Shown here piece by piece: positions 56,549 through 57,243 of a DNA stretch of 64,000 nt (its first letter is position 1; every line of letters starts with the position of its first letter). The stretch is from Escherichia coli. Its GTDB lineage: Bacteria; Pseudomonadota; Gammaproteobacteria; Enterobacterales; Enterobacteriaceae. Position numbers and translations under genes: made by a program. The stretch lies in NCBI RefSeq assembly GCF_045037415.1, contig NZ_CP173438.1. One strand, 5' to 3'. Under the pieces are notes generated by a model. That model did no database searches, was not told the DNA's origin, and was given only the letters and a program-made list of their open reading frames with translations.

Positions 56549-57046
56549 TTATTTGTTTTTCCGTAAAGGATTAGCTTTCCATCTTCTTACTAACCATTCG
56601 AATTCTTGATATGTAGTATCCGAATTAATGCTTTCTCTGATTGCTTTAATTAATGGCTCGGCAATATCATATGTCTCTACAACTGTTGTGTAAGATGTTC
56701 TTTTTATCATTTTTTCATCATAAATACCTTCACGAATACTTACAGCAACTCGCTCGTAAAAATTTAAAATATATTGAAATTTTCGACGCTCGGCCATTTC
56801 TTCATCTGTTATTATGCAACCATCACAAGGAAAAACATAAGAACGAAATGATTTGCCTGAACGATGCACTTGTTTCAGGGTATGCAATGACTCTATATAT
56901 TGCATATCTTGCCGACTCTCAAAAAGAAAGTTGGCCGTTTGAGTTTTTTTTGCGGTACGCACATTGTAGATAATGGTTCCAATGGCAACCAAAACGCCAA
57001 GCAGAACAATAGCATTGCTGATGATTTGTAGTGTTATTGGGTTCAT
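56549..57046 (-). CDS. single-pass membrane protein with ~135-aa soluble domain, AT-rich cargo gene
   Basis: 165-aa ORF; N-terminal TM (ITLQIISNAIVLLGVLVAIGTIIY); first gene of a leftward two-gene operon (39-bp spacer to next gene). Confidence 0.7.
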   Translation of the reverse strand: MNPITLQIISNAIVLLGVLVAIGTIIYNVRTAKKTQTANFLFESRQDMQYIESLHTLKQVHRSGKSFRSYVFPCDGCIITDEEMAERRKFQYILNFYERVAVSIREGIYDEKMIKRTSYTTVVETYDIAEPLIKAIRESINSDTTYQEFEWLVRRWKANPLRKNK

Positions 57047-57066
57047 CCTATTTCATCCATAAAAAA

Positions 57067-57097
57067 GGCGGGGAGCAAATCCCCGCCTCATTAGAGG
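57067..57097 (-). terminator. intrinsic terminator/attenuator hairpin 14 nt upstream of the 165-aa gene start
   Basis: On the minus strand GGCGGGGA-tttgc-TCCCCGCC followed by TTTTTTAT, then 14 nt, then ATG. Confidence 0.55.
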
Positions 57098-57243
57098 TCA
57101 ACGTAGCTTAGAAACCATCAAATTCATCATACATTTTTTTCATATCAACCCCCTCATAGAAATCATAACCACGTTTTGTGGTTTTTGTGACGTATAAACT
57201 ACATCAAAGGCAAGCCACGGTCAAATATATAGGCATGCTTACC

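Follow-up and report, generated by a model that had tools for sequence, protein, structure and literature searches.

Leader-peptide attenuators such as trpL, hisL, pheL and pyrL are characterized by a short open reading frame (ORF) with a Shine-Dalgarno sequence, which is located directly before the terminator of a structural gene without an intervening promoter. In operons of the type II toxin-antitoxin style a small upstream gene abuts or overlaps a larger downstream gene, and protein antitoxins as small as 8-20 residues are not known, the known ones being far larger. Type III toxin-antitoxin loci are composed of a promoter, a small first element, a Rho-independent terminator and a larger effector, with 1-50 bp between the parts; the terminator sets the relative levels of both products and the loci are associated with phage defence (PMC3401426). 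P2-like phages, in turn, possess a hotspot of anti-phage cargo next to cos, between gpA and gpQ (Rousset et al., 2022, PMC9122126). Here we describe a locus that resembles each of these systems in part. It lies in a 64-kb stretch of Escherichia coli DNA (contig NZ_CP173438.1; referred to as the window, whose numbering is used for all positions), is read on the minus strand and comprises an unannotated ORF of 11 codons (mini-ORF) for a putative micropeptide, a hairpin followed by a tract of six T residues (T6) and a gene encoding a protein of the DUF4760 family. On balance, we favor the interpretation that the hairpin is a fixed, leaky intercistronic attenuator, which would keep transcripts of the micropeptide far more abundant than those of DUF4760.

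The order of promoter, small element, terminator and effector is shared with the type III systems ToxIN, CptIN and TenpIN. Unlike in these systems, the first element of the module is an 11-codon ORF and not an RNA repeat array, and Tandem Repeats Finder detected no tandem repeat array between promoter and terminator. DUF4760 likewise differs from the type III effectors, as it is predicted to be helical and anchored in the membrane, and similarity to ToxN/AbiQ-type endoribonucleases was not detected. With the leader-peptide attenuators the module has in common the succession of short ORF, terminator and gene with no promoter in between. In contrast to them, it has no mutually exclusive antiterminator, 18 nt separate the end of the ORF from the hairpin, selection appears to act on the peptide instead of on codon runs, and remote relatives keep the ORF without a terminator. 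As in type II-style pairs, the micropeptide stop codon of remote relatives abuts or overlaps the DUF4760 start and the small gene can stand alone; the differences here are a product of 8-20 residues without a DNA-binding domain and, in the window's clade, a terminator and a separate ribosome-binding site in place of the coupling. The genomic position is the one of the P2 gpA-gpQ hotspot of anti-phage cargo (old/tin locus).

The features of the locus are listed in Table 1. The minus-strand sequence over the terminator region reads …TAATGAGGCGGGGATTTGCTCCCCGCCTTTTTTATGGATGAAATAGGATGAAC… and forms a stem of 10 pairs, seven of them G-C, with a loop of 5 nt (consensus terminator scan). This hairpin, with a folding energy of -19.1 kcal/mol, ranked first among the terminator-like sites within 50000-64000. 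When strong sites were defined by a T6 or longer tract next to a hairpin with an energy of -15 kcal/mol or lower, five were found on both strands of the window, whereas 40 dinucleotide-preserving shuffles contained 0.05 on average and never more than 1. No T-run follows the stem in the plus-strand reading; therefore, the terminator is unidirectional. The structure is conserved in homologous loci, which is supported by stems that were replaced wholesale between clades, and the stem of Citrobacter phage Shae_phiSM carries a compensatory change from G-C to A-U. With its GC-rich short-loop stem, the abutting U-tract, the excess over chance and this structural conservation, the hairpin with T6 is, as far as can be read from the DNA, a genuine Rho-independent terminator and not a chance structure. 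An intrinsic terminator at this place had already been proposed in a sequence-only reading of the same DNA, and its coordinates, stem sequence, T6 and the distance of 14 nt to the DUF4760 start codon were all confirmed on re-reading.

Table 1. Features of the micropeptide-DUF4760 locus and its surroundings (window numbering).
Feature	Position	Strand	Remarks
Terminase P	61106-59355	minus	
Portal Q	59355-58309	minus	terminator at 58320-58300
Terminator after Q	58300-58320	both	strong, bidirectional; common to portal Q and convergent gene 57731-58294
Convergent gene	57731-58294	plus	
Second minus-strand terminator	57347-57365	minus	strong; adjacent to the probable cos site, towards Q
Probable cos region	about 57290-57310		deduced from where the linear record of phage P88_4B11 ends
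Promoter-like site of the module	57196-57224	minus	-35 TTGACC (57224-57219), 17-nt spacer, -10 TAGTTT (57201-57196); read from sequence
Leader with hairpin	down to 57047	minus	called untranslated in the locus order
Small 5' stem-loop AACCAC-AAAAC-GTGGTT	57167-57183	minus	close to where the micropeptide transcript is predicted to start
Shine-Dalgarno GAGGGGG of mini-ORF	57149-57155	minus	5 nt before the mini-ORF ATG
Mini-ORF, 11 codons + stop, MKKMYDEFDGF*	57108-57143	minus	translated from sequence; unannotated
Spacer element GTTGACCTCT, anti-Shine-Dalgarno-like	57093-57102	minus	minimum-free-energy folds
Terminator hairpin	57065-57089	minus	5' arm GAGGCGGGGA 57089-57080, loop TTTGC 57079-57075, 3' arm TCCCCGCCTT 57074-57065
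T6 tract of terminator	57061-57066	minus	adjoins stem; predicted 3' end of short transcript
Junction ATGGATGAAATAGG, 14 nt	57047-57060	minus	between T6 and DUF4760 ATG at 57046
DUF4760 gene, 165 aa	56549-57046	minus	Pfam PF15956 E = 2e-34; phrog_2284; RefSeq WP_001068329.1
280-aa membrane protein gene	55667-56509	minus	phrog_12528; 39 nt downstream of DUF4760

The DUF4760 gene had been taken for the first gene of the cargo. This view had to be revised, because the mini-ORF with a promoter-like site and a Shine-Dalgarno sequence of its own precedes the hairpin. Its codons are ATG AAA AAA ATG TAT GAT GAA TTT GAT GGT TTC TAA, and it is missing from every annotation retrieved for this locus. From the promoter-like site a transcription start near 57189 is predicted. 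Both hexamers and their spacing are kept in plasmid copies with 80% identity (TTGATA-17-TAGCTT), and in distant clades putative strong promoters are situated at the equivalent place, e.g., TTGACT-17-TATATA in locus L290; the promoter scan additionally returned an alternative promoter-like candidate (GTCACA-18-TATGAT, 57191-57162). The small stem-loop, which could be a 5' stabilizer or an operator, is conserved in the plasmid copies as CCACA-AGA-TGTGG. Neither direct reading nor the scan revealed a sigma-70-like promoter site between the hairpin and the DUF4760 ATG. Since no promoter fits after the terminator, transcription of DUF4760 must read through it.

Diverged copies of the 170-nt leader unit were found in other phages, plasmids and prophages. 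Phage Shae_phiSM encodes the peptide MKKVFDEFDGF followed by a DUF4760 gene with 78% identity, plasmids of 46-49 kb from E. coli, E. fergusonii and Klebsiella aerogenes carry the peptide MKKRYDEFDGF at 80% nucleotide identity and have no DUF4760, and a decayed remnant of the unit is present in a prophage of Shiga toxin-producing E. coli with unrelated cargo. A peptide-based scan for codon-degenerate …DEFDGF-stop, filtered for a short ORF with a downstream hairpin and T-run, yielded about 30 distinct leaders from viral contigs and genomes, derived from Citrobacter, Klebsiella, Providencia, Yersinia, Atlantibacter, Franconibacter, Xenorhabdus and other genera. All of them keep a strong Shine-Dalgarno sequence, followed by short ORF, spacer and hairpin with T-run, and in most of them DUF4760 starts 52-72 nt past the mini-ORF stop. 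The leaders vary synonymously (GAT/GAC, GAA/GAG, TTT/TTC, GGT/GGC/GGA, TAA/TGA) and their N-terminal residues are variable; the conservation of the DEFDGF stretch itself was partly imposed by the search, which allowed only synonymous variants. Because of this bias, 48 viral loci were additionally retrieved by DUF4760 protein alignment alone and thus independently of the peptide. Wherever the upstream sequence sufficed for a judgement, these loci without exception had a mini-ORF ending in [DE][DE][FYW][DE]G[FY]-stop, even at a protein identity of only 32%, with endings such as …EEFDGF, …DEFEGF, …DEYEGF, …EEYEGF, …DENDGY and …EGWDGY. Nearly all of them possess a hairpin and T-run 16-29 nt past the stop (-12.8 to -19.1 kcal/mol). 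The stems are unrelated between clades (GGAGGCC…, GGAGACC…, CGGGGCC…, GATCGGAGG…, GCGGAGCC…), the T-runs across the family are 4 to 8 residues long, and all family members have a strong Shine-Dalgarno sequence (GGAGG or AAGGAG), the spacing of which does not change. An apparent exception, L252, is explained by a copy of the insertion sequence IS421 inside the hairpin, with the intact mini-ORF 1.3 kb upstream.

This IS4-family element interrupts the terminator hairpin of several E. coli genomes (L004, L252, L046; hits H17-H19, H79), with a target duplication of 13 bp (GGGATTTGCTCCC, minus strand of 57071-57083), and puts about 1.3 kb between the micropeptide gene and DUF4760. By these insertions the pair may have been uncoupled naturally, or the element may prefer the hairpin as a target.

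Intact units of peptide and terminator persist without DUF4760 in the 46-49 kb plasmids and in several Xenorhabdus species, and DUF4760 without an upstream peptide was never seen among the sampled loci with sufficient upstream sequence. In the plasmids, which carry phage-like genes, DUF4760 is replaced by a 33-aa hydrophobic ORF (MATFKRWSALSLSILLHVPILAWLIARQINARL; L005 pCREC783_47k 3664-3765, also L008 and L009) that begins at the ATG right after the T-tract. The Xenorhabdus loci (L232, L233, L234, L236, L240) encode a micropeptide with a doubled motif, MKDEFEWCDEFDGF; L171, which was grouped with them, encodes MFDEFDGF. The Xenorhabdus variant faces a convergent ORF of 64-88 aa resembling a two-helix membrane protein, and the DEFEW half of its motif resembles the near-invariant YQEFEWL motif near the C-terminus of DUF4760.

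A profile search returned 3,793 representatives of the DUF4760 family at 50% clustering, from which 12 members spread over the score range were taken as a remote sample. All 12 loci have an upstream micropeptide ORF with a Shine-Dalgarno sequence and a core of acidic residues, Gly and an aromatic residue: MFREIDEGF, MNLIVRDTDEGF, …RDDYNGF, MKDVTGGF, …NEGWDGW, …MDGWYD, …FNDGWND, MKLFKDGWDD, …YDGWDGND, …HRDGWDG, …SDGYDGLI and …MDEYEPV. In 10 of them the micropeptide stop lies -8 to +15 nt from the DUF4760 start, or overlaps it, and there is no terminator; a hairpin with T-run separates the genes in L297 and L311 only. In Enterobacterales and Pseudomonas clades, a hairpin with T-run of unrelated sequence is located between the two genes. 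As the remote pairs are coupled without a terminator, the pairing of micropeptide and DUF4760 is, by this comparison, an ancient unit, into which the terminator was inserted later as a clade-specific intercistronic element. In one remote clade (L297 1292-1546, L298 1011-1265) the pair is found immediately upstream of a phage holin gene (PF16082), which might indicate a connection to lysis or to functions at the membrane.

Between clades the nucleotide sequence is divergent, but synonymous or conservative changes (D/E, F/Y/W) preserve the peptide motif, and for this reason the putative micropeptide is considered to be under selection at the peptide level. The same pattern bears on whether the predicted terminated transcript of about 125 nt could be a small regulatory RNA with the mini-ORF being incidental. 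Its size, its own promoter-like site, the 5' stem-loop and the terminal hairpin would all be typical of such an RNA, and within the clade the nucleotide sequence of the 3' half of the ORF is highly conserved. The divergence between clades at a constant motif, the strong and correctly spaced Shine-Dalgarno sequence that is always present and the lack of an Rfam match nevertheless make this explanation scarcely credible. A scan of 55000-59000 against Rfam at permissive thresholds gave two sub-threshold chance matches only, one SorX-like, to which the hairpin gave rise (19 bits, gathering score 46.6), and one caiA-like.

For the question of whether the terminator is switched or constitutive, the nascent leader of 12 diverse members, from the 5' untranslated region to the first two U residues, was folded in two states, i.e., free and with the region from the Shine-Dalgarno sequence to 10 nt past the stop forced single-stranded as a mimic of the ribosome. 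The mean pairing probability of the terminator was 0.945-0.999 in both states, and the ensemble folding revealed no antiterminator or competing fold in these members, with or without the ribosome footprint. A pairing probability that stays this high irrespective of occupancy of the mini-ORF points to a constitutive rather than a switchable terminator. The earlier proposal of an attenuator with conditional expression was borne out in one half: DUF4760 transcription must pass the terminator, whereas the conditional part found no support in a fold with no antiterminator and a pairing probability of at least 0.945. A regulated attenuator, with read-through controlled by translation or stalling on the mini-ORF or by a trans-acting factor, e.g., upon infection or induction, would fit the classical leader-peptide layout. 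Like some arrest peptides, the peptide of the window's clade is strongly conserved in its C-terminal residues beside the stop. However, the stop codon is located 16-29 nt before the hairpin, so that a ribosome terminating there would not reach far enough to occlude it, and runs of regulatory codons are absent. Furthermore, 10 of the 12 remote relatives keep the micropeptide without any terminator, and their motif often lies 1-4 residues from the C-terminus, a poor fit with stop-codon-specific arrest in a peptide serving attenuation alone. We therefore regard regulated attenuation as rather unlikely.

A further argument in its favor comes from the spacer, which in the window's clade could pair either with the Shine-Dalgarno sequence of the mini-ORF or with GAGG at the terminator base. 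In predicted folds GTTGACCTCT is able to pair with the translation initiation region of the mini-ORF at 57154-57145. Within the window's clade this duplex has z-scores between -1 and -3.4, compared with around 0 in distant clades, where the helix is missing, and it is not significant by column counts. As a general feature the helix was consequently rejected; the pairing is putatively specific to the lineage.

The junction between T6 and DUF4760 carries the weak GGA/AGG ribosome-binding region of this gene, and the ATGGA after the T-run is conserved within the clade. Directly after the T-tract there is an ORF of five codons (ATG GAT GAA ATA GGA TGA, MDEIG*), the stop of which overlaps the DUF4760 ATG (ATGA). 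In relatives the equivalent ATG is variously in frame with DUF4760, stop-start overlapping or out of frame; with the frame not conserved a coding role is doubtful, and MDEIG* was not accepted as a gene. One could also imagine two separate units here, with complete termination behind a stand-alone gene for the micropeptide or a small RNA. Expression of DUF4760 would then depend on processing or on a promoter that escaped recognition, and stabilization of RNA ends would be the main task of the hairpin. The stand-alone units of plasmids and Xenorhabdus would agree with this, as would the apparent strength of the terminator (10 bp, T6, -19 kcal/mol) and a TTGACC hexamer in the spacer at 57100-57095. 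Yet no -10 element follows 16-18 nt past this hexamer and no promoter-like site was reported there, only 14 nt lie between T-tract and ATG, the distance from the mini-ORF stop to the DUF4760 start is tightly held in the clade (52-72 nt), and the translational coupling in remote relatives indicates a single operon. Separate units are accordingly improbable.

For the leaky attenuator that we favor, we propose the following course. Transcription would start from the module's promoter-like site, and the polymerase would pass the well-translated 11-codon gene before meeting the terminator 18 nt past its stop. Most polymerases would halt at T6 and release an RNA of about 125 nt encoding the micropeptide only, and a minority would read through and generate an mRNA for DUF4760 and the 280-aa protein, with the DUF4760 ribosome-binding region directly after the T-tract. 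We infer both the termination efficiency and the resulting transcript ratio. The micropeptide might be a partner that neutralises a membrane protein with potentially harmful effects, or serves as its sensor. Peptide units persist alone, DUF4760 was never found without the peptide, and the remote loci are coupled, all of which would be expected of an antidote-effector pair; toxicity, neutralisation and anti-phage activity of the pair are putative. As a more far-reaching and tentative proposal, the widespread 8-20-residue DG[FWY] micropeptides might be obligate genetic partners of DUF4760 in a new two-component phage/prophage module, either toxin-antitoxin-like or acting in defence/exclusion, in which the terminator would set the ratio in Enterobacterales and Pseudomonas as in ToxIN.

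DUF4760 was modeled with AlphaFold2 at a predicted local distance difference test (pLDDT) score above 90, and the model predicts a long N-terminal transmembrane helix and an all-helical domain. In a fold search of the AlphaFold Database its predicted structural relatives were DUF4760 proteins only, distributed across Proteobacteria. The 280-aa gene, presumably co-transcribed with DUF4760, occurs only in the window's lineage. Its product shows a weak Csx27-like match (E = 1e-5); Csx27 is an accessory membrane protein of type VI-B CRISPR (clustered regularly interspaced short palindromic repeats) systems.

Several points weigh against the interpretation outlined above. Translation of the mini-ORF, termination efficiency and read-through are predictions from sequence, and it is an assumption that DUF4760 is a harmful effector which is held low. 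For DUF4760 there was no match in PADLOC or NCBIfam, PF15956 was the sole significant Pfam match, and a fold search of the PDB returned no solved structural relative (best E = 0.58). Co-folding with AlphaFold2, in which each DUF4760 monomer was tethered by a linker to its own peptide and a paired alignment was used, gave no docking (pLDDT of about 39 for the peptide and above 90 for DUF4760), so a direct interaction of monomer and peptide is unsupported by these models. In the window's clade the spacer may sequester the Shine-Dalgarno sequence of the mini-ORF, which complicates the assumed abundance of the peptide. Finally, covariation of the stem within this clade is weak, because the stem hardly varies, and is not significant, as 57 of 500 shuffles reach the observed score.

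The prophage of the window is P88-like (Xuanwuvirus, P2-related). The segment 55500-58400 is 100% identical to many E. coli chromosomes, notably of sequence type 131 (ST131), and to induced phages such as vB_EcoM-705R2, and 300 of 5,426 complete E. coli genomes, among them pandemic ST131 lineages, carry the leader with hairpin. The annotation available for identical E. coli loci and tblastn of backbone genes place the locus in the cos-adjacent gpA-gpQ hotspot of P2-like phages, and the 280-aa gene converges on parR, parM and gpA on the plus strand. Homology with P88-like phages of other cargo ends at about 57244, which assigns leader and hairpin to the cargo module instead of the phage backbone. 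Exactly at this backbone/cargo junction Tandem Repeats Finder located 2.7 copies of the 10-nt unit TGCACAAAAG (57244-57270). This repeat, with the probable cos site on one side and the promoter-like site of the module on the other, could be a protein-binding site for packaging or regulation. The canonical 19-mer of the P2/186 cos was not found with up to three mismatches, and a likeness of the stem GAGGCGGGGA to the P2 cohesive end was dismissed as coincidence. In the NZ_CP023844 prophage, which is identical to that of the window, RefSeq marks gpM, the small terminase subunit (L001 382-1182), as a pseudogene with an internal stop; this ST131 prophage may be defective for packaging.

With this arrangement in mind, the suggestion that the hairpin guards the cargo from transcription arriving from the cos/late-gene side can be assessed. 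The hairpin lies on the strand of P and Q downstream of cos and would stop any polymerase arriving there. Two terminators (58320-58300 and 57365-57347) and the convergent gene already intervene, however, and the module's promoter-like site is located between cos and hairpin, so that its own transcripts would be stopped equally. The architecture is moreover unchanged in L108, L179 and L107, where P2-type portal, terminase and gpA were undetected by tblastn in the locus DNA examined. Shielding from the cos side, as put forward in the sequence-only reading, is hence very improbable as the main role of the hairpin.

Exactly this cassette (WP_001068329 and its neighbours) is contained in the supplementary table of hotspot contents of Rousset et al. 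(PMC9122126), with 197 occurrences of 'DUF4760'. As the term is confined to one supplementary file of that study, the cassette was apparently not among the systems tested, and neither micropeptide nor terminator is mentioned. In the literature searched, DUF4760 was mentioned once, in passing, and the peptide motifs did not occur in any bacterial context. Micropeptide and DUF4760 are adjacent in all judgeable independent loci and in 12/12 remote loci, and the pair appears to be undescribed. In form the hairpin is an ordinary intrinsic terminator; its setting inside a conserved micropeptide-DUF4760 pair appears to be new.

The pair is present across thousands of phage-associated loci. For the cassette itself the gene count changes, with an overlooked 11-codon ORF as its first gene. 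DUF4760 clones under the "native promoter" need the mini-ORF and the terminator; otherwise their expression level, and possibly also their toxicity, would be wrong. In evolutionary terms, a translationally coupled pair was apparently rewired into one separated by a terminator. A micropeptide partner provides a concrete hypothesis for an uncharacterised phage-associated family of about 3,800 representatives, and if this proves true, no proteinaceous antidote or sensor described so far would be as small as the micropeptide.

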